From Ptychomitrium polyphyllum (lineage: Eukaryota), in contig OZ316775.1 of the NCBI GenBank assembly GCA_973851085.1, positions 12,710,001 to 12,774,000 on the forward strand: 64,000 nucleotides of DNA. Reading direction: 5' to 3'. The translations under genes were made by a program, and so were the position numbers. Shown in pieces: positions 1 to 32,899 of the stretch (position 1 is its first letter; each line of letters starts with the position of its first letter). The notes below the pieces were generated by a model. The model searched no databases. It was not told the DNA's origin and was given only the letters and a program-made list of their open reading frames with translations.

Positions 1-1637
1 TAGAGGATTATCCTCCTCACTTGGATGAAGATGCTCACCATCATCTTGTGAGGCTCCTCTGCTGGTCTTAAGGGTGGAAGTCGCCTTGCTCTCCCCCTCC
101 ATTGTTCCTTCACCTCCATCCACATCTCCACCTTCTTCCTTGGTTGTTGTGGAGGATGTGTCCACAATCACACCATTACTCCCACTTGGACACATCCCCA
201 AGTGCTCACAAGCACTCTTGTGCTCCAAGAACTCAACATCACGACTCTTGATGATCTTCTTGCTCTCCACACACATCAACCTATATGCTTTGCTGCCCTC
301 ACAGTAACCCAAGAACACACACTTTGTACCCTTTGCATCAAGCTTGGACCTCATGCAATCTTGAACCTTTGCATATGCAAGGCATCCGAAGGTCCTCATG
401 TGTGAAACACAAGGCTTCTTACCACTCCAAGCTTCTTCGGGGGTCATGGATGCAAGGGCACTTGTGGGGCACCTATTTCTTGTGTACACCGCATTCACCA
501 CCGCTTCCGCCCACAACTCATGTCCAAGATGTTGGGCATGAAGCATGCTCCTCGCCATCTCCACAATGGTGCGATTTGCCCTCTCAGCAACTCCATTTTG
601 TTGTGGAGTGTATGGAGTGGAGGTTTGCCTTGCAATGCCTTCACTCCTCAACAAGTCATCAAAACATTTGGATAAGAACTCACCACCATTATCCGAACGC
701 AACACCTTGATCTTGGACTCACATTGCTTCTCCACAAGCGCCTTGAACTCCTTGAATCTTGCAAAGCATTCGCTCTTGGCCTTGAGGATGAACACCCATA
801 CTTTCCTCGAATAATCATCAATGAAGGTGAGGAAGTACCTTGCTCCCCCGATGGATGGAGTCCTCATAGGCCCGCACACGTCGGAATGCACAATCTCCAA
901 CAATTTGCTTGCACGACTTGCCACTCCACTTGGAAACGACGCCCTTTGCTGCTTGCCTTGGATGCAAGCCTCACAAGCAAGTTCCTTGGCCTTGTGGCAT
1001 GTTGTACCGAGATCCAAGCCGCTTACCATGCCTTGGAGCTCCTTCATGGCCTTCACATTGAGGTGCCCAAGGCGCCCATGCCATATGCCAAACTTGTCTT
1101 GGTCTTGCCTCCCACAACAACCTCCACCACAATGGAACCCATTCCAATGGCCTCCACCACGCCATTGTCACCCATGAGCACACTAGTGGCTGCAATTGCC
1201 TCATAAGTATGGAATGAGCACTTGTAAGGAGTCATGTGCTTTGTGGCGCCCGAATCAACTATCCACTTGGACAAGGCCGCCATAGGCGCCCCCTCGCTTG
1301 CCATGAAGGCACAATCACCACCTCCAAGGTGGTCCATCACATGGTTGGCATCCTCCCTCTCTCCTTTCTTCGCCTTGAAGCAATTTCGAGCAAAATGACC
1401 TGGTTTTCCACACACAAAGCGCATTCGAAGATTTGGACGTTGATTAGAATAGGTGGCCTTGCCTTGCCTCGAGAAGAGGGCGGAGTCCTCACTTGAATTC
1501 GCCTTCTCCTTCCTCTTGGTGTCCTCGTGGCTCAATCTCGCCGTCACATAGTCCATGGTGAGGTCCTTGATGGGAATGGACTCCAAGGCCACTATGAGAT
1601 AGCTATAGGACTCCGGCAAGCTCATGAGCAATGTAAT
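1..1637 (-). pseudogene. Copy E0, downstream part: gag-PR-integrase fragment with 238-bp deletion, interrupted by a nested insertion
   Basis: Integrase and gag sequence match the other copies. Deletion junction TCTTGGTCTT at 1097-1106. Ends at TSD GTAAT 1633-1637. Confidence 0.9.
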
Positions 1638-2065
1638 TATTGAAGAAATGCAACAAAGCTAGTACAACAAGCAAGAAGAGAGAGAGCAAAGTTGCAACAA
1701 GAGAAGTGTGGAGCAAGATGACTCGCACTTCCAAAACCCCTTTACTTATACTTGAGAGTCATCCACCAAAATGTGCCACTTGGCGGCCATGCATTTGCCT
1801 CTACTATATGAGTGACATGTGGCGGCTAACCCTAACCCTAGCCGCCGTACCCGCCACCCTAACCCTAACGGCCGCCCTAACCCTAATGGCCGCCCTAACC
1901 TTAGCCGCCATACAAAACCCTTGTTGCCTTTTCTTAACCCTAGCCTCCATATCCCCTATAGCCTCTTTCCTCACACTCCTTTGACCATTAGCAACATATC
2001 ATGCTCTAAGTCTACACAAGGATACTTCAACTAGGATTACTTTATATGTTTCACACTTTGCAACA
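1638..2065 (-). repeat. LTR L1 (428 bp), 3' LTR of E1
   Basis: TATTG...CAACA on +. PPT on the right, TSD GTAAT on the left. Confidence 0.95.
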
Positions 2066-2083
2066 CTCCCACTTTGCTACTGG

Positions 2084-5000
2084 TCAAAGGGCCTTTAGTC
2101 CAATTGACCTCGTGAACAACTGGTGTCTATCTCTTACCAATGCTTTTGTCAACAAATCAGCAAGCATGCCCTCTGTTGCACAATACCTCATATCTATCAC
2201 TCCATCTTCAATCTTCTCTCTTATGAAGTGATGTTGGATGTCAATGTGCTTTGTTCGTGAGTGATGCTTGGGATTCTTGGCAAAGGCAAGACATCCTTGA
2301 TTGTCACACATGATGGGCGTTGCACCCAGTTGTACAAGTCCAATGTCCTCCAAGAGTTGCCTCAGCCACATTGCTTCCATTGCACCATGACTTGCCGCCA
2401 TGTACTCCGCCTCCATGGTTGACCTTGCAATTGTGGGTTGCCTCTTGCAGTTCCAAGAGATGGCTCCCACTCCAACAAAGAACACATACCCCGTTGTGGA
2501 GCGCCTATCATTTGCATCTCCAGCCCAATCCGCATCACAAAATCCCTGCAACTCAATGTTATCACCTCCCAGACACAACACAAAGTCCAAGGTGCCCTTC
2601 AAGTACCTCATGATCCTCTTGATGGTTGCCCAGTGCATGGGGCCGGCCTTGGACATGTGTTGGCTCACAACACTCACCGAAAACGCAAGATCAAACCTTG
2701 TGCCCACCATGGCATACATGAGGCATCCCACTCCGGCCTTGTATGGAACGCCTTGCATTTCGCCCTCCACTTGAGCATACTCCTCATCACTTAGCTTCAT
2801 CAACCTCAAGTTTGCCTCCAAAGGCGTTCCCACTGGCTTGCAGTCTTCCATGTTGAATCGCTTCAACACCTCTTCCATGTACTTCTTCTGGCTCATGGTG
2901 ATGGTCCTCTTTGCACGATCCCTCACAAATTCCACTCCAAGACAATAGTGTAACTCGCCCAAATCACTCATCTCAAACTCCTGCTCTAATTTGGCCTTCA
3001 ACCACTCTAGCTTCTCCGAAAGGTTGGCCAACATGATCAAGTCATCCACATAGAGAATCACAATCAACAAGAATTCCATGGTCTGCATCACATACAAGGA
3101 ATGATCCGCCTCACTTCTCACAAACCCTTCCTTCCTAAAGAATGCATCAATGCGTTGGTACCATGCCCTTGGCGATTGCTTAAGCCCGTACAAGGCCTTC
3201 TTCAACTTGCAAACAAGGTGTTCCAAGCCTTCATGTACAAACCCTGGAGGTTGCTCCATGTAGATGTCTTCTTCCAACTCTCCATTTAGAAAGGCCGTCT
3301 TCACATCCATCTGGTGCACCTCCAAGTCCATTGCCGCAGCTATGGCCAAGATGGTCCTAATGGTGGTGAACTTGGCCACAGGTGCAAAGGTCTCATTGAA
3401 GTCCACACCAGCAACTTGTGAGTATCCTTTGGCAACTAGCCTTACCTTGTGCCTCACAATTGCACCCGAAGCATCCCTCTTGCTTCTAAACACCCACTTG
3501 CAACCTATACAAGAACGATTTGGAGGAAGTTGAGTCAAGTGCCATGTGCCATTGTCCATGAGCGACTTGTACTCCTCTTCCATGGCCTTCTCTCAGTTCA
3601 TTGCATCCGTGGACTTCAAGGCATCGCACATAGTTAAAGGATCAACGAGGAGGGCAACATTGGCATGTTCTGCACTCACTTTTGGAAAGATGTGGTTCTT
3701 CCACCATTCACCAAGTGGCCTCCTCTCCCTCATGGGATACCTCCTTCCACTCATTGCAGGCCTCTCTTCTTGTAATGCATCCCCTTCTCCTTCACTTAGA
3801 GGATTATCCTCCTCACTTGGATGAAGATGCTCACCATCATCTTGTGAGGCTCCTCTGCTGGTCTTAAGGGTGGAAGTCGCCTTGCTCTCCCCCTCCATTG
3901 TTCCTTCACCTCCATCCACATCTCCACCTTCTTCCTTGGTTGTTGAGGATGTGTCCACAATCACACCATTACTCCCACTTGGACACATCTCCAAGTGCTC
4001 ACAAGCACTCTTGTGCTCCAAGAACTCAACATCACGACTCTTGATGATCTTCTTGCTCTCCACACACATCAACCTATATGCTTTGCTGCCCTCACAATAA
4101 CCAAAGAACACACACTTTGTACCCTTTGCATCAAGCTTGGACCTCATGCAATCTGGAACCTTTGCATATGCAAGGCATCCGAAGGTCCTCATGTGTGAAA
4201 CACAAGGCTTCTTACCACTCCAAGCTTCTTCAGGGGTCATGGATGCAAGGGCACTTGTGGGGCACCTATTTCTTGTGTACACCGCATTCACCACCGCTTC
4301 CGCCCACAACTCATGTCCAAGATGTTGGGCATGAAGCATGCTCCTCGCCATCTCCACAATGGTGCGATTTGCCCTCTCAGCAACTCCATTTTGTTGTGGA
4401 GTGTATGGAGTGGAGGTTTGCCTTGCAATGCCTTCACTCCTCAACAAGTCATCAAAACATTTGGATAAGAACTCACCACCATTATCCGAACGCAACACCT
4501 TGATCTTGGACTCACATTGCTTCTCCACGAGCGCCTTGAACTCCTTGAATCTTGCGAAGCATTCGCTCTTGGCCTTGAGGATGAACACCCATACTTTCCT
4601 CGAATAATCATCAATGAAGGTGAGGAAGTACCTTGCTCCCCCGATGGATGGAGTCCTCATAGGCCCGCACACGTCGGAATGCACAATCTCCAACAATTTG
4701 CTTGCACGACTTGCCACTCCACTTGGAAACGACGCCCTTTGCTGCTTGCCTTGGATGCAAGCCTCACAAGCAAGTTCCTTGGCCTTGTGGCATGTTGTAC
4801 CGATATCCAAGCCGCTTACCATGCCTTGGAGCTCCTTCATGGCCTTCACATTGAGGTGCCCAAGGCGCCCATGCCATATGCCAAACTTGTCTTGGTCTTC
4901 AATGAACTCAGCAAAGGCCGCCACCTCCACTCCATTCACCTTCTTACACTTGATGAAGTACAAGTTGCCATCCCTCAACCCCGTGGCAACCACATCTCCA

Positions 5001-6124
5001 CTCAATGACTTCACAATACATCCATTCACATTGAAATGAGCCACAAACCCTCCCATCACAAGTTTGCTCACCGAAAGGAGGTTGGACTTCATCTTTGGCA
5101 CATGCAGCACGTCCTTGAAGGTGATCCTCTTGGTCTTGCCTCCCACAACAACCTCCACCACAATGGAACCCATTCCAATGGCCTCCACCACGCCATTGTC
5201 ACCCATGAGCACACTAGTGGCTGCAATTGCCTCATAAGTATGGAATGAGCACTTGTAAGGAGTCATGTGCTTTGTGGCGCCCGAATCAACTATCCACTTG
5301 GATAGGGCCGCCATAGGCGCCCCCTCGCTTGCCATGAAGGCACAATCACCACCTCCAAGGTGGTCCATCACATGGTTGGCATCCTCCCTCTCTCCTTTCT
5401 TGGCCTTGAAGCAATTTCGAGCAAAATGACCTGGTTTTCCACACACAAAGCACGTTCGAAGATTTGGACGTTGATTAGAATAGGTGGCCTTGCCTTGCCT
5501 CGAGAAGAGGGCGGAGTCCTCACTTGAATTCGCCTTCTCCTTCCTCTTGGTGTCCTCGTGGCTCAATCTCGCCGTCACATAGTCCATGGTGAGGTCCTTG
5601 ATGGGAATGGACTCCAAGGCCACTATGAGATAGCTATAGGACTCCGGCAAGCTCATGAGCAATGTAATCACAACATCCGACTCCTCCAATGGCTTGTCCA
5701 CAATGGCAACTTGCCTTGCAAGGGCCTTCAACTTGTTAACATGCGCCATGAGGTCGTGGCCTTCTTCCATCTTGCAGTTCAAGAGCTTCCTCTTTGTGAA
5801 GATGATGTTGGAGAGGTTCTTGCTCTCATAGATGTTGCAAAGCGTCTTCCACGCTTCTGCTGGTCCAGTGCAAGAGATGATATGGGCGAAGTTGGCATCA
5901 TCAAGGTTGGTGGCAAGGATGCCAAAAGCCTTCTTCTCACGACGCTAGAACTCCTTCCTCTCCTTTGCATCTGCCGACAATGGTGGAGCAACCTCACTCT
6001 CATCTATGATGTCCCAAAGGTCCATAGAAGCCAACGAGAGCTCCATCCTAACCTTCCATTGGTAGAAGTTATCACCATGAAACTTTTGAATGACCCTAAG
6101 ACCTTCACCTTCACTCGAAGCCAT
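2084..6124 (-). pseudogene. Copy E1 gag-pol, full length with two nonsense codons (Q60stop at 5945-5947, W844stop at 3593-3595)
   Basis: Colinear with the 1346-aa ORF. The ORF track is split into 3593-5782 and 2084-3583. Confidence 0.92.
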
Positions 6125-6560
6125 GGCTTAAGAAGAGTGGTAACAAAACAAACCTTCAAACGAACTATTTCCTTGACTCCTATGCTTCTCACAAGTCTTC
6201 ACAACTATGAGTCCCAAGAAAAACCTTTCAACTCACTATGTCCACTCAATGAGCACACATATCAATGATCTCACAAGATAACAACACCAAGCACAACAAA
6301 ATGGTGTTAGGAAGCTTGAATCCAACAAAGACACTATCAAGGTCTTATCACCACTCAAAACAACTCACTATCCAAGGAGTTTCAACAACCACAACCCTAC
6401 TAGAGCTCAAGAAACATCAAACCAAGCACCTACATGTACAAAACTTCAAAGTTAGGCGTTTCTGACTATATCTTCAAAAACTATGAAGTGATCTTGCTCC
6501 ACACAAGAACAACAACTACAAAACACTTCAAGCTACTTCAAAAGGCACAACTAAGAGTGA

Positions 6561-6574
6561 GTGGGCCCATAACC
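6561..6574 (-). other. Primer-binding site GGTTATGGGCCCAC (half tRNA-iMet type); also at 8501, 9840, 14542, 22763, 24576, 29516, 37825, 42627, 47430
   Basis: Directly abuts the LTR end. The + strand GTGGGCCCATAACC equals the anticodon-arm sequence of plant initiator tRNA-Met. Confidence 0.9.
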
Positions 6575-7002
6575 TATTGAAGAAATGCAACAAAGCTAGT
6601 ACAACAAGCAAGAAGAGAGAGAGCAAAGTTGCAACAAGAGAAGTGTGGAGCAAGATGACTCGCACTTCCAAAACCCCTTTACTTATACTTGAGAGTCATC
6701 CACCAAAATGTGCCACTTGGCGGCCATGCATTTGCCTCTACTATATGAGTGACATGTGGCGGCTAACCCTAACCCTAGCCGCCGTAGCCGCCACCCTAAC
6801 CCTAACGGCCGCCCTAACCCTAATGGCCGCCCTAACCTTAGCCGCCATACAAAACCCTTGTTGCCTTTTCTTAACCCTAGCCTCCATATCCCCTATAGCC
6901 TCTTTCCTCACACTCCTTTGACCATTAGCAACATATCATGCTCTAAGTCTACACAAGGATACTTCAACTAGGATTACTTTATATGTTTCACACTTTGCAA
7001 CA
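6575..7002 (-). repeat. LTR L2 (428 bp), 5' LTR of E1; outer end joined to PR-region sequence of E2 (AGTTT...)
   Basis: PBS on the left; internal sequence instead of PPT on the right. Confidence 0.95.
6756..6847 (-). promoter_or_regulatory. U3 minisatellite (~18-bp units) with six TTAGGG hexamers and four AGCCGCC GCC boxes (shown for L2; similar in the other young LTRs)
   Basis: CCCTAACCCTAA dimers alternate with (A/G)GCCGCC. A candidate TATA (TATAAGTA, - strand) lies at 6680-6687. Function is inferred. Confidence 0.6.
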
Positions 7003-8066
7003 AGTTTGCTCACCGAAAGGAGGTTGGACTTCATCTTTGGCACATGCAGCACGTCCTTGAAGGTGATCCTCTTGGTCTTGCCTCCCACAACAACCTCCAC
7101 CACAATGGAACCCATTCCAATGGCCTCCACCACGCCATTGTCACCCATGAGCACACTAGTGGCTGCAATTGCCTCATAAGTATGGAATGAGCACTTGTAA
7201 GGAGTCATGTGCTTTGTGGCGCCCGAATCAACTATCCACTTGGATAGGGCCGCCATAGGCGCCCCCTCGCTTGCCATGAAGGCACAATCACCACCTCCAA
7301 GGTGGTCCATCACATGGTTGGCATCCTCCCTCTCTCCTTTCTTCGCCTTGAAGCAATTTCGAGCAAAATGACCTGGTTTTCCACACACAAAGCACGTTCG
7401 AAGATTTGGACGTTGATTAGAATAGGTGGCCTTGCCTTGCCTCGAGAAGAGGGCGGAATCCTCACTTGAATTCGCCTTTTCCTTCCTCTTGGTGTCCTCG
7501 TGGCTCAATCTCGCCGTCACATAGTCCATGGTGAGGTCCTTGATGGGAATGGACTCCAAGGCCACTATGAGATAGCTATAGGACTCCGGCAAGCTCATGA
7601 GCAATGTAATCACAACATCCGACTCCTCCAATGGCTTGTCCACAATGGCAACTTGCCTTGCAAGGGCCTTCAACTTGTTAACATGCGCCATGAGGTCGTG
7701 GCCTTCTTCCATCTTGCAGTTCAAGAGCTTCCTCTTTGTGAAGATGATGTTGGAGAGGTTCTTGCTCTCATAGATGTTGCAAAGCGTCTTCCACGCTTCT
7801 GCTGGTCCAGTGCAAGAGATGATATGGGCGAAGTTGGCATCATCAAGGTTGGTGGCAAGGATGCCAAAAGCCTTCTTCTCACGACGCTGGAACTCCTTCC
7901 TCTCCTTTGCATCTGCCGACAATGGTGGAGCAACCTCACTCTCATCTATGATGTCCCAAAGGTCCATAGAAGCCAACGAGAGCTCCATCCTAACCTTCCA
8001 TTGGTAGAAGTTATCACCATGAAACTTTTGAATGACCCTAAGACCTTCACCTTCACTCGAAGCCAT
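7003..8066 (-). pseudogene. Copy E2: gag and part of protease only, ending at LTR L2
   Basis: ORF 6936-8066 with zinc knuckle and DSG protease motif, reading into an LTR-derived tail. Confidence 0.9.
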
Positions 8067-8514
8067 GGCTTAAGAAGAGTGGTAACAAAACAAACCTTCA
8101 AACGAACTATTTCCTTGACTCCTATGCTTCTCACAAGTCTTCACAACTATGAGTCCCAAGAAAAACCTTTCAACTCACTATGTCCACTCAATGAGCACAC
8201 ATATCAATGATCTCACAAGATAACAACACCAAGCACAACAAAATGGTGTTAGGAAGCTTGAATCCAACAAAGACACTATCAAGGTCTTATCACCACTCAA
8301 AACAACTCACTATCCAAGGAGTTTCAACAACCACAACCCCAAGAGCTTAAGAAACATCAAACCAAGCACCTACATGTGCAAAACCTCAAAGTTAGGCGTT
8401 TCTAACTCTATCTTCAATAACTATGAAGTGATCTTGCTCCACACAAGAACAACAACTACAACACACTTCAAGCTACTTCAAAAGGCACAACTAAGAGTGT
8501 GTGGGCCCATAACC

Positions 8515-8942
8515 TATTGAAGAAATGCAACAAAGCTAATACAACAAGCAAGAAGAGAGAGAGCAAAGTTGCAACAAGAGAAGTGTGGAGCAAGATGACT
8601 CGCACTTCCAAAACCCCTTTACTTATACTTGAGAGTCATCCACCAAAATGTGCCACTTGGCGGCCATGCATTTGCCTCTACTATATGAGTGACATGTGGC
8701 GGCTAACCCTAACCCTAGCCGCCGTAGCCGCCACCCTAACCCTAACGGCCGCCCTAACCCTAATGGCCGCCCTAACCTTAGCCGCCATACAAAACCCTTG
8801 TTGCCTTTTCTTAACCCTAGCCTCCATATCCCCTATAGCCTCTTTCCTCACACTCCTTTGACCATTAGCAACATATCATGCTCTAAGTCTACACAAGGAT
8901 ACTTCAACTAGGATTACTTTATATGTTTCACACTTTGCAACA
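8515..8942 (-). repeat. LTR L3 (428 bp), 5' LTR of E2; flanked by TSD GTAAT 8943-8947
   Basis: PBS on the left; GTAAT and resumed E0 gag on the right. Confidence 0.95.
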
Positions 8943-9403
8943 GTAATCACAACATCCGACTCGTCCAATGGCTTGTCCACAATGGCAACTTGCCTTGCAA
9001 GGGCCTTCAACTTGTTCACATGCGCCTTGAGGTCGTGGCCTTCTTCCATCTTGCAGTTCAAGAGCTTCCTCTTTGTGAAGATGATGTTGGAGAGGTTCTT
9101 GCTCTCATAGATGTTGCAAAGCGTCTTCCACGCTTCTGCCGGTCCAGTGCAAGAGATGATATGGGCGAAGTTGGCATCATCAAGGTTGGTGGCAAGGATG
9201 CCAAAAGCCTTCTTCTCACGACGCTGGAACTCCTTCCTCTCCTTTGCATCTGCCGACAATGGTGGAGCAACCTCACTCTCATCTATGATGTCCCAAAGGT
9301 CCATAGAAGCCAACGAGAGCTCCATCCTAACCTTCCATTGGTAGAAGTTATCACCATGAAACTTTTGAATGACCCTAAGACCTTCACCTTCACTCGAAGC
9401 CAT
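8943..9403 (-). pseudogene. Copy E0, upstream part: N-terminal gag
   Basis: Continues exactly from 1637 once 1638-8942 and one TSD copy are removed. Confidence 0.9.
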
Positions 9404-9853
9404 GGCTTAAGAAGAGAGGTAACAAAACAAACCTTCAAACGAACTATTTCCTTGACTCCTATACTTCTCACAAGTCTTCACAACTATGAGTCCCAAGAAA
9501 AACCTTTCAACTCACTATGTCCACTCAATGAGCACACATATCAATGAACTCACAAGACAACAACACCAAGCACAACAAAATGGTGTTAGGAAGCTTCAAT
9601 CCAACAAAGACACTATCAAGGTCTTATCACCACTCAAAACAACTCACTATCCAAGGAGTTTCAACAACCACAACCCTACTAGAGCTCAAGAAACATCAAA
9701 CCAAGCACCTACATGTGCAAAACTTCAAAGTTAGGCGTTTCTAACTCTATCTTCAATAACTATGAAGTGATCTTGCTCCACACAAGAACAACAACTACAA
9801 AACACTTCAAGCTACTTCAAAAGGCACAACTAAGTGTGAGTGGGCCCATAACC

Positions 9854-10281
9854 TATTGAAGAAATGCAACAAAGCTAGTACAGCAAGCAAGAAGAGAGAG
9901 AGCAAAGTTGCAACAAGAGAAGTGTGGAGCAAGATGACTCCCACTTCCAAAACCCCTTTACTTATACTTGAGAGTCATCCACCAAAATGTGCCACTTGGC
10001 GGCCATGCATTTGCCTCCACTATATGAGTGACATGTGGCGGCTAACTCTAACCCTAGCCGCCGTAGCCGCCACCCTAACCCTAACGGCCGCCCTAACCCT
10101 AATGGCCGCCCTAACCCTAGCCGCCATACAAAACCCTTGTTGCCTTTTCTTAACCCTAGCCTCCATATCCCCTATAGCCTCTTTCCTCACACTCCTTTGA
10201 CCATTAGCAACATATCATGCTCTAAGTCTACACAAGGATACTTCAACTAGGATTACTTTATATGTTTCACACTTTGCAACC
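9854..10281 (-). repeat. LTR L4, shared between E0 and E3; terminal TG mutated to GG
   Basis: PBS on one side, PPT on the other, no TSD. 10281 is C where other LTRs have A. Confidence 0.93.
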
Positions 10282-10299
10282 CTCCCACTTTGCTACTGG

Positions 10300-13200
10300 T
10301 CAAAGGGCCTTTAATCCAATTGACCTCGTCAACAACTGGTGTCTATCTCTTACCAATGCTTTTGTCAACAAATCAGCAAGCATGCCCTCTGTTGCACAAT
10401 ACCTCATATCTATCACTCCATCTTCAATCTTCTCTCTTATGAAGTGATGTTGGATGTCAATGTGCTTTGTTCGTGAGTGATGCTTGGGATTCTTGGCAAA
10501 GGCAAGACATCCCTGATTGTCACACATGATGGGCGTTGCACCCAGTTGTACAAGTCCAATGTCCTCCAAGAGTTGCCTCAGCCACATTGCTTCCATTGCA
10601 CCATGACTTGCCGCCATGTACTCCGCCTCCATGGTTGACCTTGCAATTGTGGGTTGCCTCTTGCAGTTCCAAGAGATGGCTCCCACTCCAACAAAGAACA
10701 CATACCCCGTTGTGGAGCGCCTATCATTTGCATCTCCAGCCCAATCCGCGTCGCAAAATCCCTGCAACTCAATGTTATCACCTCCCAGACACAACACAAA
10801 GTCCAAGGTGCCCTTCAAGTACCTCATGATCCTCTTGATGGTTGCCCAGTGCATGGGGCCGGCCTTGGACATGTGTTGGCTCACAACACTCACCGAAAAC
10901 GCAAGATCAAACCTTGTGCCCACCATGGCATACATGAGGCACCCCACTCCGGCCTTGTATGGAACGCCTTGCATTTCGCCCTCCACTTGAGCATACTCCT
11001 CATCACTTAGCTTCATCAACCTCAAGTTTGCCTCCAAAGGCGTTTCCACTGGCTTGCAGTCTTCCATGTTGAATCGCTTCAACACCTCTTCCATGTACTT
11101 CTTCTGGCTCATGGTGATGGTCCTCTTTGCACGATCCCTCACAAATTCCACTCCAAGACAATAGTGTAACTCGCCCAAATCACTCATCTCAAACTCCTGC
11201 TCTAATTTGGCCTTCAACCACTCTAGCTTCTCCGAAAGGTTGGCCAACATGATCAAGTCATCCACATAGAGAATCACAATCAACAAGAATTCCATGGTCT
11301 GCATCACATACAAGGAATGATCCGCCTCACTTCTCACAAACCCTTCCTTCCTAAAGAATGCATCAATGCGTTGGTACCATGCCCTTGGCGATTGCTTAAG
11401 CCCGTACAAGGCCTTCTTCAACTTGCAAACAAGGTGTTCCAAGCCTTCATGTACAAACCCTGGAGGTTGCTCCATGTAGATGTCTTCTTCCAACTCTCCA
11501 TTTAGAAAGGCCGTCTTCACATCCATCTGGTGCACCTCCAAGTCCATTGCCGCAGCTATGGCCAAGATGGTCCTAATGGTGGTGAACTTGGCCACAGGTG
11601 CAAAGGTCTCATTGAAGTCCACACCAGCAACTTGTGAGTATCCTTTGGCAACTAGCCTTGCCTTGTGCCTCACAATTGCACCCGAAGCATCCCTCTTGGT
11701 TCTAAACACCCACTTGCAACCTATGCAAGAACGATTTGGAGGAAGTTGAGTCAAGTGCCATGTGCCATTGTCCATCAGCGACTTGTACTCCTCTTCCATG
11801 GCCTTCTCTCAGTTCATTGCATCCGTGGACTTCAAGGCATCGCACATAGTTAAAGGATCAACGAGGAGGGCAACATTGGCATGTTCTGCACTCACTTTTG
11901 GAAAGATGTGGTTCTTCCACCATTCACCAAGTGGCCTCCTCTCCCTCATGGGATACCTCCTTCCACTCATTGCAGGCCTCTCTTCTTGTAATGCATCCCC
12001 TTCTCCTTCACTTAGAGGATTATCCTCCTCACTTGGATGAAGATGCTCACCATCATCTTGTGAGGCTCCTCTGCTGGTCTTAAGGGTGGAAGTCGCCTTG
12101 CTCTCCCCCTCCATTGTTCCTTCACCTCCATCCACATCTCCACCTTCTTCCTTGGTTGTTGTGGAGGATGTGTCCACAATCACACCATTACTCCCACTTG
12201 GACACATCCCCAAGTGCTCACAAGCACTCTTGTGCTCCAAGAACTCAACATCACGACTCTTGATGATCTTCTTGCTCTCCACACACATCAACCTATATGC
12301 TTTGCTGCCCTCACAGTAACCCAAGAACACACACTTTGTACCCTTTGCATCAAGCTTGGACCTCATGCAATCTGGAACCTTTGCATATGCAAGGCATCCG
12401 AAGGTCCTCATGTGTGAAACACAAGGCTTCTTACCACTCCAAGCTTCTTCGGGGGTCATGGATGCAAGGGCACTTGTGGGGCACCTATTTCTTGTGTACA
12501 CCGCATTCACCACCGCTTCCGCCCACAACTCATGTCCAAGATGTTGGGCATGAAGCATGCTCCTCGCCATCTCCACAATGGTGCGATTTGCCCTCTCAGC
12601 AACTCCATTTTGTTGTGGAGTGTATGGAGTGGAGGTTTGCCTTGCAATGCCTTCACTCCTCAACAAGTCATCAAAACATTTGGATAAGAACTCACCACCA
12701 TTATCCGAACGCAACACCTTGATCTTGGACTCACATTGCTTCTCCACGAGCGCCTTGAACTCCTTGAATCTTGCGAAGCATTCGCTCTTGGCCTTGAGGA
12801 TGAACACCCATACTTTCCTCGAATAATCATCAATGAAGGTGAGGAAGTACCTTGCTCCCCCGATGGATGGAGTCCTCATAGGCCCGCACACGTCGGAATG
12901 CACAATCTCCAACAATTTGCTTGCACGACTTGCCACTCCACTTGGAAACGACGCCCTTTGCTGCTTGCCTTGGATGCAAGCCTCACAAGCAAGTTCCTTG
13001 GCCTTGTGGCATGTTGTACCGAGATCCAAGCCGCTTACCATGCCTTGGAGCTCCTTCATGGCCTTCACATTGAGGTGCCCAAGGCGCCCATGCCATATGC
13101 CAAACTTGTCTTGGTCTTGCCTCCCACAACAACCTCCACCACAATGGAACCCATTCCAATGGCCTCCACCACGCCATTGTCACCCATGAGCACACTAGTG

Positions 13201-14105
13201 GCTGCAATTGCCTCATAAGTATGGAATGAGCACTTGTAAGGAGTCATGTGCTTTGTGGCGCCCGAATCAACTATCCACTTGGACAAGGCCGCCATAGGCG
13301 CCCCCTCGCTTGCCATGAAGGCACAATCACCACCTCCAAGGTGGTCCATCACATGGTTGGCATCCTCCCTCTCTCCTTTCTTCGCCTTGAAGCAATTTCG
13401 AGCAAAATGACCTGGTTTTCCACACACAAAGCGCATTCGAAGATTTGGACGTTGATTAGAATAGGTGGCCTTGCCTTGCCTCGAGAAGAGGGCGGAGTCC
13501 TCACTTGAATTCGCCTTCTCCTTCCTCTTGGTGTCCTCGTGGCTCAATCTCGCCGTCACATAGTCCATGGTGAGGTCCTTGATGGGAATGGACTCCAAGG
13601 CCACTATGAGATAGCTATAGGACTCCGGCAAGCTCATGAGCAATGTAATCACAACATCCGACTCGTCCAATGGCTTGTCCACAATGGCAACTTGCCTTGC
13701 AAGGGCCTTCAACTTGTTCACATGCGCCATGAGGTCGTGGCCTTCTTCCATCTTGCAGTTCAAGAGCTTCCTCTTTGTGAAGATGATGTTGGAGAGGTTC
13801 TTGCTCTCATAGATGTTGCAAAGCGTCTTCCACGCTTCTGCCGGTCCAGTGCAAGAGATGATATGGGCGAAGTTGGCATCATCAAGGTTGGTGGCAAGGA
13901 TGCCAAAAGCCTTCTTCTCACGACGCTGGAACTCCTTCCTCTCCTTTGCATCTGCCGACAATGGTGGAGCAACCTCACTCTCATCTATGATGTCCCAAAG
14001 GTCCATAGAAGCCAACGAGAGCTCCATCCTAACCTTCCATTGGTAGAAGTTATCACCATGAAACTTTTGAATGACCCTAAGACCTTCACCTTCACTCGAA
14101 GCCAT
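10300..14105 (-). pseudogene. Copy E3 gag-pol with 238-bp frameshifting deletion (13109-13118), W-stop at 11809-11811 and zinc-knuckle Cys-to-Arg change
   Basis: ORFs 13065-14105, 11809-13068 and 10300-11799. Confidence 0.92.
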
Positions 14106-14555
14106 GGCTTAAGAAGAGAGGTAACAAAACAAACCTTCAAACGAACTATTTCCTTGACTCCTATACTTCTCACAAGTCTTCACAACTATGAGTCCCAAGA
14201 AAAACCTTTCAACTCACTATGTCCACTCAATGAGCACACATATCAATGAACTCACAAGACAACAACACCAAGCACAACAAAATGGTGTTAGGAAGCTTCA
14301 ATCCAACAAAGACACTATCAAGGTCTTATCACCACTCAAAACAACTCACTATCCAAGGAGTTTCAACAACCACAACCCTACTAGAGCTCAAGAAACATCA
14401 AACCAAGCACCTACATGTGCAAAACTTCAAAGTTAGGCGTTTCTAACTCTATCTTCAATAACTATGAAGTGATCTTGCTCCACACAAGAACAACAACTAC
14501 AAAACACTTCAAGCTACTTCAAAAGGCACAACTAAGTGTGAGTGGGCCCATAACC

Positions 14556-14983
14556 TATTGAAGAAATGCAACAAAGCTAGTACAACAAGCAAGAAGAGAG
14601 AGAGCAAAGTTGCAACAAGAGAAGTGTGGAGCAAGATGACTCCCACTTCCAAAACCCCTTTACTTATACTTGAGAGTCATCCACCAAAATGTGCCACTTG
14701 GCGGCCATGCATTTGCCTCCACTATATGAGTGACATGTGGCAGCTAACTCTAACCCTAGCCGCCGTAGCCGCCACCCTAACCCTAACGGCCGCCCTAACC
14801 CTAATGGCCGCCCTAACCCTAGCCGCCATACAAAACCCTTGTTGCCTTTTCTTAACCCTAGCCTCCATATCCCCTATAGCCTCTTTCCTCACACTCCTTT
14901 GACCATTAGCAACATATCATGCTCTAAGTCTACACAAGGATACTTCAACTAGGATTACTTTATATGTTTCACACTTTGCAACA
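14556..14983 (-). repeat. LTR L5 (428 bp), shared between E3 and E4
   Basis: PBS on the left, PPT on the right. Confidence 0.95.
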
Positions 14984-15001
14984 CTCCCACTTTGCTACTG
15001 G

Positions 15002-17859
15002 TCAAAGGGCCTTTAATCCAATTGACCTCGTCAACAACTGGTGTCTATCTCTTACCAATGCTTTTGTCAACAAATCAGCAAGCATGCCCTCTGTTGCACA
15101 ATACCTCATATCTATCACTCCATCTTCAATCTTCTCTCTTATGAAGTGATGTTGGATGTCAATGTGCTTTGTTCGTGAGTGATGCTTGGGATTCTTGGCA
15201 AAGGCAAGACATCCCTGATTGTCACACATGATGGGCGTTGCACCCAGTTGTACAAGTCCAATGTCCTCCAAGAGTTGCCTCAGCCACATTGCTTCCATTG
15301 CACCATGACTTGCCGCCATGTACTCCGCCTCCATGGTTGACCTTGCAATTGTGGGTTGCCTCTTGCAGTTCCAAGAGATGGCTCCCACTCCAACAAAGAA
15401 CACATACCCCGTTGTGGAGCGCCTATCATTTGCATCTCCAGCCCAATCCGCGTCACAAAATCCCTGCAACTCAATGTTATCACCTCCCAGACACAACACA
15501 AAGTCCAAGGTGCCCTTCAAGTACCTCATGATCCTCTTGATGGTTGCCCAGTGCATGGGGCCGGCCTTGGACATGTGTTGGCTCACAACACTCACCGAAA
15601 ACGCAAGATCAAACCTTGTGCCCACCATGGCATACATGAGGCATCCCACTCCGGCCTTGTATGGAACGCCTTGCATTTCGCCCTCCACTTGAGCACACTC
15701 CTCATCACTTAGCTTCATCAACCTCAAGTTTGCCTCCAAAGGCGTTCCCACTGGCTTGCAGTCTTCCATGTTGAATCGCTTCAACACCTCTTCCATGTAC
15801 TTCTTCTGGCTCATGGTGATGGTCCTCTTTGCACGATCCCTCACAAATTCCACTCCAAGACAATAGTGTAACTCGCCCAAATCACTCATCTCAAACTCCT
15901 GCTCTAATTTGGCCTTCAACCACTCTAGCTTCTCCGAAAGGTTGGCCAACATGATCAAGTCATCCACATAGAGAATCACAATCAACAAGAATTCCATGGT
16001 CTGCATCACATACAAGGAATGATCCGCCTCACTTCTCACAAACCCTTCCTTCCTAAAGAATGCATCAATGCGTTGGTACCATGCCCTTGGCGATTGCTTA
16101 AGCCCGTACAAGGCCTTCTTCAACTTGCAAACAAGGTGTTCCAAGCCTTCATGTACAAACCCTGGAGGTTGCTCCATGTAGATGTCTTCTTCCAACTCTC
16201 CATTTAGAAAGGCCGTCTTCACATCCATCTGGTGCACCTCCAAGTCCATTGCTGCAGCTATGGCCAAGATGGTCCTAATGGTGGTGAACTTGGCCACAGG
16301 TGCAAAGGTCTCATTGAAGTCCACACCAGCAACTTGTGAGTATCCTTTGGCAACTAGCCTTGCCTTGTGCCTCACAATTGCACCCGAAAAATCCCTCTTG
16401 CTTCTAAACACCCACTTGCAACCTATGCAAGAACGATTTGGAGGAAGTTGAGTCAAGTGCCATGTGCCATTGTCCATCAGCGACTTGTACTCCTCTTCCA
16501 TGGCCTTCTCCCAGTTCATTGCATCCGTGGACTTCAAGGCATCGCACATAGTTAAAGGATCAACGAGGAGGGCAACATTGGCATGTTCTGCACTCACTTT
16601 TGGAAAGATGTGGTTCTTCCACCATTCACCAAGTGGCCTCCTCTCCCTCATGGGATACCTCCTTCCACTCATTGCAGGCCTCTCTTCTTGTAATGCATCC
16701 CCTTCTCCTTCACTTAGAGGATTATCCTCCTCACTTGGATGAAGATGCTCACCATCATCTTGTGAGGCTCCTCTGCTGGTCTTAAGGGTGGAAGTCGCCT
16801 TGCTCTCCCCCTCCATTGTTCCTTCACCTCCATCCACATCTCCACCTTCTTCCTTGGTTGTTGTGGAGGATGTGTCCACAATCACACCATTACTCCCACT
16901 TGGACACATCCCCAAGTGCTCACAAGCACTCTTGTGCTCCAAGAACTCAACATCACGACTCTTGATGATCTTCTTGCTCTCCACACACATCAACCTATAT
17001 GCTTTGCTGCCCTCACAGTAACCCAAGAACACACACTTTGTACCCTTTGCATCAAGCTTGGACCTCATGCAATCTGGAACCTTTGCATTTGCAAGGCATC
17101 CGAAGGTCCTCATGTGTGAAACACAAGGCTTCTTACCACTCCAAGCTTCTTCGGGGGTCATGGATGCAAGGGCACTTGTGGGGCACCTATTTCTTGTGTA
17201 CACCGCATTCACCACCGCTTCCGCCCACAACTCATGTCCAAGATGTTGGGCATGAAGCATGCTCCTCGCCATCTCCACAATGGTGCGATTTACCCTCTCA
17301 GCAACTCCATTTTGTTGTGGAGTGTATGGAGTGGAGGTTTGCCTTGCAATGCCTTCACTCCTCAACAAGTCATCAAAACATTTGGATAAGAACTCACCAC
17401 CATTATCCGAACGCAACACCTTGATCTTGGACTCACATTGCTTCTCCACAAGCGCCTTGAACTCCTTGAATCTTGCAAAGCATTCGCTCTTGGCCTTGAG
17501 GATGAACACCCATACTTTCCTCGAATAATCATCAATGAAGGTGAGGAAGTACCTTGCTCCCCCGATGGATGGAGTCCTCATAGGCCCGCACACGTCGGAA
17601 TGCACAATCTCCAACAATTTGCTTGCACGACTTGCCACTCCACTTGGAAACGACGCCCTTTGCTGCTTGCCTTGGATGCAAGCCTCACAAGCAAGTTCCT
17701 TGGCCTTGTGGCATGTTGTACCGAGATCCAAGCCGCTTACCATGCCTTGGAGCTCCTTCATGGCCTTCACATTGAGGTGCCCAAGGCGCCCATGCCATAT
17801 GCCAAACTTGTCTTGGTCTTGCCTCCCACAACAACCTCCACCACAATGGAACCCATTCC
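15002..17859 (-). pseudogene. Copy E4, downstream part (IN-RT-RH; 238-bp deletion junction at 17811-17820), split by E5
   Basis: Ends at TSD ATTCC 17855-17859. Confidence 0.9.
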
Positions 17860-18269
17860 TATTGAAGAAATGCAACAAAGCTAGTACAACAAGCAAGAAG
17901 AGAGAGAGCAAAGTTGCAACAAGAGAAGTGTGGAGCAAGATGACTCGCACTTCCAAAACCCCTTTACTTATACTTGAGAGTCATCCACCAAAATGTGCCA
18001 CTTGGCGGCCATGCATTTGCCTCTACTATATGAGTGACATGTGGCGGCTAACCCTAACCCTAGCCGCCGGAGCCGCCACCCTAACCCTAACGGCCGCCCT
18101 AACCCTAATGGCCATACAAAACCCTTGTTGCCTTTTCTTAACCCTAGCCTCCATATCCCCTATAGCCTCTTTCCTCACACTCCTTTGACCATTAGCAACA
18201 TATCATGCTCTAAGTCTACACAAGGATACTTCAACTAGGATTACTTTATATGTTTCACACTTTGCAACA

Positions 18270-18279
18270 CTCCCACTTT
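18270..18279 (-). other. Polypurine tract AAAGTGGGAG (representative)
   Basis: Immediately precedes the 3' LTR TG, only ~8 bp after the pol stop. Confidence 0.8.
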
Positions 18280-18287
18280 GCTACTGG

Positions 18288-21200
18288 TCAAAGGGCCTTT
18301 AGTCCAATTGACCTCGTCAACAACTGGTGTCTATCTCTTACCAATGCTTTTGTCAACAAATCAGCAAGCATACCCTCTGTTGCACAATACCTCATATCTA
18401 TCACTCCATCTTCAATCTTCTCTCTTATGAAGTGATGTTGGATGTCAATGTGCTTTGTTCGTGAGTGATGCTTGGGATTCTTGGCAAAGGCAAGACATCC
18501 TTGATTGTCACACATGATGGGCGTTGCACCCAGTTGTACAAGTCCAATGTCCTCCAAGAGTTGCCTCAGCCACATTGCTTCCATTGCACCATGACTTGCC
18601 GCCATGTACTCCGCCTCCATGGTTGACCTTGCAATTGTGGGTTGCCTCTTGCAGTTCCAAGAGATGGCTCCCACTCCAACAAAGAACACATACCCCGTTG
18701 TGGAGCGCCTATCATTTGCATCTCCAGCCCAATCCGCATCACAAAATCCCTGCAACTCAATGTTATCACCTCCCAGACACAACACAAAGTCCAAGGTGCC
18801 CTTCAAGTACCTCATGATCCTCTTGATGGTTGCCCAGTGCATGGGGCCGGCCTTGGACATGTGTTGGCTCACAACACTCACCGAAAACGCAAGATCAAAC
18901 CTTGTGCCCACCATGGCATACATGAGGCACCCCACTCCGGCCTTGTATGGAACGCCTTGCATTTCGCCCTCCACTTGAGCATACTCCTCATCACTTAGCT
19001 TCATCAACCTCAAGTTTGCCTCCAAAGGCGTTCCCACTGGCTTGCAGTCTTCCATGTTGAATCGCTTCAACACCTCTTCCATGTACTTCTTCTGGCTCAT
19101 GGTGATGGTCCTCTTTGCACGATCCCTCACAAATTCCACTCCAAGACAATAGTGTAACTCGCCCAAATCACTCATCTCAAACTCCTGCTCTAATTTGGCC
19201 TTCAACCACTCTAGCTTCTCCGAAAGGTTGGCCAACATGATCAAGTCATCCACATAGAGAATCACAATCAACAAGAATTCCATGGTCTGCATCACATACA
19301 AAGAATGATCCGCCTCACTTCTCACAAACCCTTCCTTCCTAAAGAATGCATCAATGCGTTGGTACCATGCCCTTGGCGATTGCTTAAGCCCGTACAAGGC
19401 CTTCTTCAACTTGCAAACAAGGTGTTCCAAGCCTTCATGTACAAACCCTGGAGGTTGCTCCATGTAGATGTCTTCTTCCAACTCTCCATTTAGAAAGGCC
19501 GTCTTCACATCCATCTGGTGCACCTCCAAGTCCATTGCCGCAGCTATGGCCAAGATGGTCCTAATGGTGGTGAACTTGGCCACAGGTGCAAAGGTCTCAT
19601 TGAAGTCCACACCAGCAACTTGTGAGTATCCTTTGGCAACTAGCCTTGCCTTGTGCCTCACAATTGCACCCGAAGCATCCCTCTTGGTTCTAAACACCCA
19701 CTTGCAACCTATGCAAGAACGATTTGGAGGAAGTTGAGTCAAGTGCCATGTGCCATTGTCCATCAGCGACTTGTACTCCTCTTCCATGGCCTTCTCCCAG
19801 TTCATTGCATCCGTGGACTTCAAGGCATCGCACATAGTTAAAGGATCAACGAGGAGGGCAACATTGGCATGTTCTGCACTCACTTTTGGAAAGATGTGGT
19901 TCTTCCACCATTCACCAAGTGGCCTCCTCTCCCTCATGGGATACCTCCTTCCACTCATTGCAGGCCTCTCTTCTTGTAATGCATTCCCTTCTCCTTCACT
20001 TAGAGGATTATCCTCCTCACTTGGATGAAGATGCTCACCATCATCTTGTGAGGCTTCTCTGCTGGTCTTAAGGGTGGAAGTCGCCTTGCTCTCCCCCTCC
20101 ATTGTTCCTTCACCTCCATCCACATCTCCACCTTCTTCCTTGGTTGTTGAGGATGTGTCCACAATCACACCATTACTCCCACTTGGACACATCTCCAAGT
20201 GCTCACAAGCACTCTTGTGCTCCAAGAACTCAACATCACGACTCTTGATGATCTTCTTGCTCTCCACACACATCAACCTATATGCTTTGCTGCCCTCACA
20301 ATAACCAAAGAACACACACTTTGTACCCTTTGCATCAAGCTTGGACCTCATGCAATCTGGAACCTTTGCATATGCAAGGCATCCGAAGGTCCTCATGTGT
20401 GAAACACAAGGCTTCTTACCACTCCAAGCTTCTTCAGGGGTCATGGATGCAAGAGCACTTGTGGGGCACCTATTTCTTGTGTACACCGCATTCACCACCG
20501 CTTCCGCCCACAACTCATGTCCAAGATGTTGGGCATGAAGCATGCTCCTCGCCATCTCCACAATGGTGCGATTTGCCCTCTCAGCAACTCCATTTTGTTG
20601 TGGAGTGTATGGAGTGGAGGTTTGCCTTGCAATGCCTTCACTCCTCAACAAGTCATCAAAACATTTGGATAAGAACTCACCACCATTATCCGAACGCAAC
20701 ACCTTGATCTTGGACTCACATTGCTTCTCCACGAGCGCCTTGAACTCCTTGAATCTTGCGAAGCATTCGCTCTTGGCCTTGAGGATGAACACCCATACTT
20801 TCCTCGAATAATCATCAATGAAGGTGAGGAAGTACCTTGCTCCCCCGATGGATGGAGTCCTCATAGGCCCGCACACGTCGGAATGCACAATCTCCAACAA
20901 TTTGCTTGCACGACTTGCCACTCCACTTGGAAACGACGCCCTTTGCTGCTTGCCTTGGATGCAAGCCTCACAAGCAAGTTCCTTGGCCTTGTGGCATGTT
21001 GTACCGATATCCAAGCCGCTTACCATGCCTTGGAGCTCCTTCATGGCCTTCACATTGAGGTGCCCAAGGCGCCCATGCCATATGCCAAACTTGTCTTGGT
21101 CTTCAATGAACTCAGCAAAGGCCGCCACCTCCACTCCATTCACCTTCTTACACTTGATGAAGTACAAGTTGCCATCCCTCAACCCCGTGGCAACCACATC

Positions 21201-22328
21201 TCCACTCAATGACTTCACAATACATCCATTCACATTGAAATGAGCCACAAACCCTCCCATCACAAGTTTGCTCACCGAAAGGAGGTTGGACTTCATCTTT
21301 GGCACATGCAGCACGTCCTTGAAGGTGATCCTCTTGGTCTTGCCTCCCACAACAACCTCCACCACAATGGAACCCATTCCAATGGCCTCCACCACGCCAT
21401 TGTCACCCATGAGCACACTAGTGGCTGCAATTGCCTCATAAGTATGGAATGAGCACTTGTAAGGAGTCATGTGCTTTGTGGCGCCCGAATCAACTATCCA
21501 CTTGGATAGGGCCGCCATAGGCGCCCCCTCGCTTGCCATGAAGGCACAATCACCACCTCCAAGGTGGTCCATCACATGGTTGGCATCCTCCCTCTCTCCT
21601 TTCTTGGCCTTGAAGCAATTTCGAGCAAAATGACCTGGTTTTCCACACACAAAGCACGTTCGAAGATTTGGACGTTGATTAGAATAGGTGGCCTTGCCTT
21701 GCCTCGAGAAGAGGGCGGAGTCCTCACTTGAATTCGCCTTCTCCTTCCTCTTGGTGTCCTCGTGGCTCAATCTCGCCGTCACATAGTCCATGGTGAGGTC
21801 CTTGATGGGAATGGACTCCAAGGCCACTATGAGATAGCTATAGGACTCCGGCAAGCTCATGAGCAATGTAATCACAACATCCGACTCCTCCAATGGCTTG
21901 TCCACAATGGCAACTTGCCTTGCAAGGGCCTTCAACTTGTTAACATGCGCCATGAGGTCGTGGCCTTCTTCCATCTTGCAGTTCAAGAGCTTCCTCTTTG
22001 TGAAGATGATGTTGGAGAGGTTCTTGCTCTCATAGATGTTGCAAAGCGTCTTCCACGCTTCTGCTGGTCCAGTGCAAGAGATGATATGGGCGAAGTTGGC
22101 ATCATCAAGGTTGGTGGCAAGGATGCCAAAAGCCTTCTTCTCACGACGCTGGAACTCCTTCCTCTCCTTTGCATCTGCCGACAATGGTGGAGCAACCTCA
22201 CTCTCATCTATGATGTCCCAAAGGTCCATAGAAGCCAACGAGAGCTCCATCCTAACCTTCCATTGGTAGAAGTTATCACCATGAAACTTTTGAATGACCC
22301 TAAGACCTTCACCTTCACTAGAAGCCAT
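18288..22328 (-). CDS. Copia gag-pol polyprotein, 1346 aa (E5)
   Basis: Zn knuckle CFVCGKPGHFARNC; protease WIVDSGAT; IN WHGRLGH..CEAC, HSDVCGP, RSDNGGEF, NGVAER; RT QMDVKTAFLNG, LYGLKQ, YVDD; RNase H DADWAG, EAEY, CDNQ, ADLLTKAL. Confidence 0.97.
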   Translation of the reverse strand: MASSEGEGLRVIQKFHGDNFYQWKVRMELSLASMDLWDIIDESEVAPPLSADAKERKEFQRREKKAFGILATNLDDANFAHIISCTGPAEAWKTLCNIYESKNLSNIIFTKRKLLNCKMEEGHDLMAHVNKLKALARQVAIVDKPLEESDVVITLLMSLPESYSYLIVALESIPIKDLTMDYVTARLSHEDTKRKEKANSSEDSALFSRQGKATYSNQRPNLRTCFVCGKPGHFARNCFKAKKGEREDANHVMDHLGGGDCAFMASEGAPMAALSKWIVDSGATKHMTPYKCSFHTYEAIAATSVLMGDNGVVEAIGMGSIVVEVVVGGKTKRITFKDVLHVPKMKSNLLSVSKLVMGGFVAHFNVNGCIVKSLSGDVVATGLRDGNLYFIKCKKVNGVEVAAFAEFIEDQDKFGIWHGRLGHLNVKAMKELQGMVSGLDIGTTCHKAKELACEACIQGKQQRASFPSGVASRASKLLEIVHSDVCGPMRTPSIGGARYFLTFIDDYSRKVWVFILKAKSECFARFKEFKALVEKQCESKIKVLRSDNGGEFLSKCFDDLLRSEGIARQTSTPYTPQQNGVAERANRTIVEMARSMLHAQHLGHELWAEAVVNAVYTRNRCPTSALASMTPEEAWSGKKPCVSHMRTFGCLAYAKVPDCMRSKLDAKGTKCVFFGYCEGSKAYRLMCVESKKIIKSRDVEFLEHKSACEHLEMCPSGSNGVIVDTSSTTKEEGGDVDGGEGTMEGESKATSTLKTSREASQDDGEHLHPSEEDNPLSEGEGNALQEERPAMSGRRYPMRERRPLGEWWKNHIFPKVSAEHANVALLVDPLTMCDALKSTDAMNWEKAMEEEYKSLMDNGTWHLTQLPPNRSCIGCKWVFRTKRDASGAIVRHKARLVAKGYSQVAGVDFNETFAPVAKFTTIRTILAIAAAMDLEVHQMDVKTAFLNGELEEDIYMEQPPGFVHEGLEHLVCKLKKALYGLKQSPRAWYQRIDAFFRKEGFVRSEADHSLYVMQTMEFLLIVILYVDDLIMLANLSEKLEWLKAKLEQEFEMSDLGELHYCLGVEFVRDRAKRTITMSQKKYMEEVLKRFNMEDCKPVGTPLEANLRLMKLSDEEYAQVEGEMQGVPYKAGVGCLMYAMVGTRFDLAFSVSVVSQHMSKAGPMHWATIKRIMRYLKGTLDFVLCLGGDNIELQGFCDADWAGDANDRRSTTGYVFFVGVGAISWNCKRQPTIARSTMEAEYMAASHGAMEAMWLRQLLEDIGLVQLGATPIMCDNQGCLAFAKNPKHHSRTKHIDIQHHFIREKIEDGVIDMRYCATEGMLADLLTKALVRDRHQLLTRSIGLKAL

Positions 22329-23186
22329 GGCTTAAGAAGAGTGGTAACAAAACAAACCTTCAAACGAACTATTTCCTTGACTCCTATGCTTCTCACAAGT
22401 CTTCACAACTATGAGTCCCAAGAAAAACCTTTCAACTCACTATGTCCACTCAATGAGCACACATATCAATGATCTCACAAGATAACAACACCAAGCACAA
22501 CAAAATGGTGTTAGGAAGCTTGAATCCAACAAAGACACTATCAAGGTCTTATCACCACTCAAAACAACTCACTATCCAAGGAGTTTCAACAACCACAACC
22601 CCAAGAGCTTAAGAAACATCAAACCAAGCACCTACATGTGCAAAACCTCAAAGTTAGGCGTTTCTAACTCTATCTTCAATAACTATGAAGTGATCTTGCT
22701 CCACACAAGAACAACAACTACAAAACACTTCAAGCTACTTCAAAAGGCACAACTAAGAGTGTGTGGGCCCATAACCTATTGAAGAAATGCAACAAAGCTA
22801 GTACAACAAGCAAGAAGAGAGAGAGCAAAGTTGCAACAAGAGAAGTGTGGAGCAAGATGACTCGCACTTCCAAAACCCCTTTACTTATACTTGAGAGTCA
22901 TCCACCAAAATGTGCCACTTGGCGGCCATGCATTTGCCTCTACTATATGAGTGACATGTGGCGGCTAACCCTAACCCTAGCCGCCGTAGCCGCCACCCTA
23001 ACCCTAATGGCCGCCCTAACCCTAATGGCCATACAAAACCCTTGTTGCCTTTTCTTAACCCTAGCCTCCATATCCCCTATAGCCTCTTTCCTCACACTCC
23101 TTTGACCATTAGCAACATATCATGCTCTAAGTCTACACAAGGATACTTCAACTAGGATTACTTTATATGTTTCACACTTTGCAACA

Positions 23187-25017: not shown

Positions 25018-25035
25018 CTCCCACTTTGCTACTGG

Positions 25036-32789: not shown

Positions 32790-32899
32790 CTTTAATCCAA
32801 TTGACCTCGTCAACAACCGGTGTCTATCTCTTACCAATGCTTTTGTTAACAAATCAGCAAGCATGCCCTCTGTTGCACAATACCTCATATCTATCACTC

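Follow-up and report, generated by a model that had tools for sequence, protein, structure and literature searches.

A telomere-like/GCC-box array in the U3 of a Copia family from a probable moss, a candidate modular enhancer shared with a distant family

The LTR of a Ty1/copia retrotransposon in the window, by which we mean the whole 64-kb stretch of DNA that was analyzed, carries an array in which telomere-like hexamers alternate with GCC boxes. The question raised by this locus is what such an array does for the element: whether it serves transcription, guides integration or does nothing that matters. We favor the reading that it is a modular, exchangeable enhancer of the U3 region and give this a probability of roughly 0.6, based on sequence comparison. 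The element and its surroundings comprise the following features:

1638..7002, minus strand: Ty1/copia element with the array LTR, ORF broken by in-frame stops
1..49889, no strand: nested and tandem cluster of the family; contains 13 near-full LTRs, tandems with shared LTRs, a 4802-bp unit present twice and a 100-N gap (32127-32226)
49546..49889, plus strand: LTR of the same family but older (86-90% identity), with one unit of the array kept and ~85 bp missing, including the rest of the array
31790..32021, minus strand: LTR of a second Copia family, 232 bp, TG...TA, with no TAGGGTT, no GGCGGC and two CCCATAT
29958..32021, minus strand: 5' part of this second family, PBS GGTTATGGACCC, ~64% nucleotide identity, adjoining a plus-strand piece of the main family and cut by an insertion at 29957

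The hallmarks of Ty1/copia elements are present in the main family: direct LTRs of 428 bp, a primer-binding site (PBS), a purine-rich tract (PPT) and 5-bp TSD pairs (ATTAC and GGAAT). Intact frames of 1347-1348 amino acids are found at 18288-22331, 25036-29082 and 33348-37391, and the domain order of the polyprotein (gag at 28-198, rve at 480-577, RVT_2 at 860-1105) places the integrase ahead of the reverse transcriptase (RT), as in Ty1/copia. The family is a young Ty1/copia family, likely of Bryco/RLC5-like type; no named Bryco/RLC5 reference stood among the close matches. No relatives of the polyprotein were found in the viral contig set, and an exact 17-nt array word gave eight matches in that set, each isolated and outside any array, which we estimate to be near chance level. 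Every copy also has a stop-free frame of 246 codons antisense to gag (5528-6268, plus strand), which is probably a shadow of codon use.

Within the 5' LTR and next to it, the following features were located:

6575..7002, minus strand: 5' LTR, 428 bp, termini TG...TA, delimited by LTR comparison
6873..6879, minus strand: lone TAGGGTT word found by motif count, upstream of the array and outside the stretch described in the first-pass annotation
6756..6847, minus strand: U3 array (LTR positions 156-247), an alternation of telomere-like words, TAGGGTT(AGGG), and GCC boxes, GGCGGC(T), in ~18-bp units
6784..6806, minus strand: one-off unit ending ...GTGGCGGCTAC, matching the terminal unit of family B (see below)
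6756..6794, no strand: 10-bp perfect inverted repeat (6756-6765 / 6785-6794), two opposed GCC boxes flanking a telomere-like pair, predicted hairpin
6714..6758, minus strand: three E-box-like words (CANNTG) lying between the TATA box and the array, in a stretch that can be aligned with the part of the L020 LTR holding the G-boxes
6680..6687, minus strand: predicted TATA box TATAAGTA (LTR position 316)
near 6656, minus strand: predicted transcription start, placed by its spacing to the TATA box
6563..6574, minus strand: PBS GGTTATGGGCCC, adjoining the LTR

The composition of the array, as given in the first-pass annotation, was counted again and found to be correct. Between 6756 and 6847 there are six CCCTAA hexamers (starting at 6767, 6794, 6800, 6812, 6818 and 6830), four of which lie within (CCCTAA)2 pairs while the remaining two precede CCCTAG or CCTTAG, together with two GGCCGCC (6807 and 6825) and four AGCCGCC, three on the plus strand (6777, 6786 and 6840) and one on the opposite strand (6758-6764). 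AGCCGCC is the consensus of the GCC box, the AP2/ERF site, and binding of ERF proteins to it is established. The ~18-bp units were recovered by TRF as an 18-bp period at 6790-6837 (2.7 copies, 93% matches). Because the element is on the minus strand, it reads the array as TTAGGG/GGCGGC. One 428-bp LTR has six TTAGGG, five TAGGGTT and seven GGCGGC, counts equalled in none of 5000 dinucleotide shuffles, a test that is inflated because the motifs sit inside duplicated units. Neither the 7-mer plant repeat TTTAGGG nor the canonical telobox AAACCCTA occurs in the LTR by motif count; its AACCCTA core occurs five times.

The location of the array in U3, upstream of a TATA candidate, likewise held up: the array ends at LTR position 247 and the TATA box lies at 316, ~70 bp downstream, which puts the array ~100-190 bp upstream of the predicted start. 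The TATA assignment is supported by the older LTR, which reads TATAAATA at the same place, and all 14 of 14 nucleotides there are common with the LTR of L020, a related metagenome locus. Comparison of the TATA box and its preceding stretch between the window LTR and that of L020 gave a local score of 34 against 20 ± 3 for shuffles (0/200). A TGACTC/GAGTCA inverted pair (6656-6661 and 6693-6698), words that we take to be AP-1/GCN4-like, flanks the TATA box. The PBS GGTTATGGGCCC is presumably of the half-tRNA-Met type and would pair with that tRNA. No tRNA gene was found within the 64-kb window. A half-tRNA-Met primer is used by Bryco, and the type is also reported for Osser and part of Gymco-II (PMC6317226). 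In place of the usual TG...CA termini, full copies have TG...TA, and ...TA ends are also found in L001, L002, L020 and the second family of the window. The TG...TA termini are a lineage trait and no ground to reject the Ty1/copia superfamily. Throughout the lineage (window LTRs, L001, L002, L020 and family B) the LTRs end in ...TA instead of CA, mostly as CAATA.

The distribution of the array among relatives carries most of the argument. A tree was built with FastTree on single best HSPs from 64 of 76 metagenome loci, 33 proteins and the window; the 12 loci with HSPs under 200 amino acids, including L008, L004 and L028, were left out. In this tree the window element groups with L001, L002 and L020, in a clade of 31 rows with support 100. 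A 17-row clade with RT identities of 44-56%, here called family B, is the neighbor of the window clade at a support of 93, which is below the tool's 95 mark. No TAGGGTT or GGCGGC was found in the LTRs of L001, L002, L008 and L020. L020 is 70% identical to the window element over a 212-residue RT/RH stretch and has the TATA-proximal promoter in common with it, and its LTR (L020:666-1223) has five CACGTG (G-box/ABRE) words in the slot that holds the array in the window (0/1000 shuffles). With these words upstream of its TATA box, L020 is a candidate ABA- or drought-responsive Copia. CCCATAT occurs twice each in L001 and the second family of the window and once each in L002 and L008. The longer word CCCATAT(G/T)G is present in all five array-less LTRs (L001, L002, L008, L020 and window 31790-32021) and is possibly a third U3 motif of this lineage.

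Family B has the array. Its LTRs consist in this region of 22-23-bp units of the same GGCGGC-TAGGGTTAGGG word, with 84 TAGGGTT cores over 17 LTR copies and the last core 9 bp before TATATA in 14 of the 17; a profile centered on TAGGGTT is conditioned on that word and hence silent on its conservation. The array can be aligned between the window and 13 family-B LTR regions (best E-values of 5.5e-11 to 5.4e-4). When the array is masked, only matches of 12-33 bp are left (E ~0.02), and R/U5 scores are weak. By the pattern used, 15 of 17 family-B LTRs have a last GCC unit ending in CTAC; a single unit of this kind is present in the window LTR and is within one substitution and one indel of the unit in 4 of the 17. 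An alignable array and a shared one-off end unit in LTRs that are otherwise barely alignable favor common descent, by retention or capture, over convergence, and we consider common descent the more likely origin of the resemblance. The five array-less relatives are closer in protein sequence than family B, which makes capture of the array plausible; retention with repeated loss in these closer relatives may also account for the pattern. Gain and loss are not polarised, because the readable closer relatives amount to four LTRs and the second family of the window. At L008, a family-B LTR (L008:5324-5774) and an array-less element belonging to the window's group are found at one locus, indicating that both kinds occur in one host.

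A slot just upstream of a conserved TATA box, occupied by one set of tandem motifs in one family and by another set in the next, looks like a modular U3 enhancer. The proposal of an enhancer, already made in the first-pass annotation, thus gains from the U3 position, from the five CACGTG words in the corresponding slot of L020 and from the same array beside the TATA box of family B. According to this proposal the GCC boxes are predicted to recruit AP2/ERF proteins of the host and the TAGGGTT words would probably recruit telomere-repeat Myb proteins, and the recruited factors would drive transcription of the element itself from the TATA box downstream. Since U3 is copied into both LTRs in each round of reverse transcription, variants that raise transcription would be expected to spread; array variants could expand by slippage and pass between families by template switching. 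In Arabidopsis, TRBs can bind to one telobox (PMC10167121) and TRB3 also binds variants such as CAACCTA, with one assay in which TRB1 did not bind a single telobox (PMC13132431); TRBs of moss influence genes that carry teloboxes close to their start (PMC12616469). Binding of TRBs to the 6-mer words of the array is therefore possible by analogy. Against an enhancer count the absence of AAACCCTA and TTTAGGG from the LTR, variants that break motifs, and the loss of units in 2 of 13 near-full LTRs and in the old LTR.

These variants lead to the alternative that survives best, namely that the array is a neutral slippage product of a G-rich U3 and binds nothing that matters. The 13 near-full LTRs are 94-100% identical to the query LTR, and unit number and motif bases vary among young copies. 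Among 10 ungapped copies, the array contributes 5 of 10 variable positions, compared to 21% of the LTR length, and several of these break a motif. Run X1 contains single genomic copies with deletions through the array and run X2 a variant without 6744-6846, and in both runs rare contigs have the array deleted or replaced. Twelve of 15 joints listed for run X1 touch the array, an overlap that is expected since most joints are long deletions in a short LTR. At the LTR end, run X1 also gave 29 diverse, AT-rich loose ends, which hint weakly at dispersed copies but are biased by contig building. The variation among copies indicates that individual motifs are not tightly constrained in genomic copies, and close relatives without the array fit neutrality as well. 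In the older LTR, the missing stretch includes non-repeat sequence that can be aligned with L020, so that deletion in the old copy is the likelier direction. Neutral slippage does not readily account for the same composite word and the same one-off end unit in a family with ~50% RT identity and an otherwise barely alignable LTR, nor for the fact that L020 has an array of a known plant motif in this slot. We therefore regard it as unlikely.

The telomere-like words may have another meaning than that of a plain activator site: they could recruit TRB-linked complexes (PRC2, JMJ14, PEAT) that tune or shield the chromatin of the element, or shape centromeric chromatin. TRBs are described as bringing both repressive and activating complexes to teloboxes, and dense Copia clusters of the RLC5/Bryco type are reported to mark moss centromeres (PMC7466625; bioRxiv 2023.05.19.541548; PMC11869191; PMC9946827). 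The canonical telobox is, however, absent from the LTR and array-less relatives exist, and we judge this alternative improbable.

Whether the array hexamer might be the telomere repeat of the host was considered as well. About 2 kb from the cluster edge lies a host gene for a RIN2-like RING/CUE E3 ligase (~51900-57500, minus strand), with matches to a Ceratodon protein (86%) and Physcomitrium RIN2 (72%) over 69% of a 179-aa frame (five matches, two with a species name). Its 5' region has two canonical AAACCCTA words (57310 and 57497) and GGCCCA words. The nearest named homologues of this gene are from mosses, and an argument from Marchantia, for which TTAGGG had been put forward, is thus probably not applicable; a passage on M. 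polymorpha Tak-1 moreover gives TTTAGGG (PMC10856949). TTTAGGG is also given for Physcomitrium (bioRxiv 2023.05.19.541548) and Sphagnum (PMC10856949), and a 7-base repeat for Syntrichia (PMC11869191). As the mosses with a stated repeat use TTTAGGG in these sources, the TTAGGG hexamer is telomere-like but probably not the host repeat, and the suggestion that it is was probably wrong. Contigs of runs X4 and X9 were discarded as evidence on the host telomere: they pile up on the array alone at 80% and look like unrelated TTAGGG-type repeats.

A structural role, in which the array acts as a G-quadruplex or hairpin in DNA or RNA and controls transcription or reverse transcription, has little to recommend it. 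There is one G3 motif with loops of up to 12 nt at LTR positions 171-209, in addition to the 10-bp inverted repeat, around which a DNA fold of -19.8 kcal/mol was predicted over a 105-nt stretch (a value without shuffle control), and PQS are common near LTR promoters (PMC3902901). No motif of four G3 runs with loops of 1-7 nt exists in the LTR, however; the loop-12 motif also arises in 173 of 1000 shuffles and is present in only 2 of 13 family-B LTR regions, and the G4Hunter maximum of 1.32 lies outside the array and is reached by 707 of 1000 shuffles. In the same survey upstream PQS were mostly on the minus strand (PMC3902901), whereas the motif of the array is on the sense strand. With its motif at chance level in shuffles, the G-quadruplex reading is disfavored, and a structural role as a whole seems highly improbable.

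The clustering of copies had suggested a further role, in which a telomere-repeat binder on the array tethers the integrase so that copies attract copies. The cluster spans at least 49 kb. Its left part (1-29957) is a head-to-tail array in which the LTRs at 25017, 14983 and 10280 are shared between units, each with a PPT before and a PBS after it, and three units of this array have the same 229-bp deletion. In the right part there are two copies of the 4802-bp unit, which have identical LTRs and share one junction. An assembly error near the 100-N gap, beside which many small errors were seen, may be a source of the duplication. TSD pairs are visible for only two insertions and at none of four more distinct 5' junctions. 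The insertion 32899/38266, at element position 4799, has no visible TSD and lacks one base. In the target sequence at the junction 29957-29969, 12 bp from the PPT end and LTR start of the element itself recur, and chance or microhomology may account for this.

For the six insertion sites mapped in array-bearing hosts, the distance to the closest host array is 0.3-1.8 kb, as tethering would have it, but such distances say little because a 5.4-kb target allows them by chance: with an array at each end of the element, no site is more than ~2.4 kb away from one. None of the six lies inside an LTR. Family B is multi-copy too, and 12 of 20 loci with a family-B LTR hold at least two pieces. Several observations speak against tethering. 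The few visible TSDs, the sharing of LTRs in tandem, the common 229-bp deletion and the duplicated unit point to tandem duplication as the origin of many copies, and one target (insertion 29957) belongs to the array-less second family, although arrays of other copies may have been nearby. The integrase tail of the window family, RYP.R.R(R/K)P.GEWWKNH, is also that of the array-less L001 and L002 and differs in the array-bearing family B. Tal1, the one centrophilic Copia that has been dissected, follows CENH3 chromatin through its integrase C-terminus, with one residue there involved (PMC11735389). The best account of the cluster is that an element of Bryco/RLC5-like type integrated by ordinary chromatin-directed targeting and that tandem duplication added to it, independent of the array. 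The claim in the first-pass annotation that a tethered integrase explains self-attraction is thus not supported by the tandem duplication, the array-less target and the integrase tail, and of all alternatives we give tethering the faintest chance.

We conclude that the array is real and probably a functional promoter array, and its sharing across families is the interesting part. If it is an enhancer, the moss Copia families form a natural series with one promoter slot and three motif sets (telomere-like/GCC, G-box/ABRE and CCCATAT), in which one can test by what means elements confined to gene-poor and probably centromeric clusters ensure that they are transcribed, and whether distant families exchange promoter modules. 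A bolder and rather doubtful extension is that centromere-type Copia families of mosses exchange a promoter cassette of telomere-like words and GCC boxes even between deeply separated families. The cassette would here have been captured from the family with ~50% RT identity and set before the element's own TATA box in place of a G-box array, and it would recruit telomere-repeat binders to centromeric retrotransposon clusters, affecting expression or targeting. If true, this connection of telomere-repeat binders with the centromere retrotransposons of mosses would be new. Among the open-licence papers searched, no title or abstract opening describes a telomere-like/GCC array for a moss Copia LTR.

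The locus resembles several known systems. Tandem LTR retrotransposons with a shared internal LTR are known and can arise by recombination (PMC11899658). The LTRs at 10280, 14983 and 25017 have this arrangement, but the cluster also contains true nested insertions and a second family. The RLC5/Bryco centromeric clusters of Physcomitrium, Ceratodon, Syntrichia and Sphagnum are alike in their moss host (a probable one here), young Copia family, dense single-family cluster and, presumably, half-tRNA-Met type of PBS, and the passages on these clusters say nothing of an LTR with a telomere-like/GCC array. With the plant telobox AAACCCTA the array has in common the AACCCTA core upstream of the predicted start, but all five cores of the LTR are without the leading A, and the 6-mers are paired with GCC boxes and not with site II. 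Further parallels are the tandem U3 enhancer boxes of plant Copia LTRs, which include the BII boxes of Tnt1, the 13-bp repeats of Tto1 and the repeats of TLC1.1. They are also short tandem units of factor sites in U3, and both their number and their kind vary, the latter even among subfamilies whose coding regions are similar. The candidate enhancer described here differs from them in that its unit combines a telomere-like word with a GCC box and is common to a family with only ~50% RT identity.
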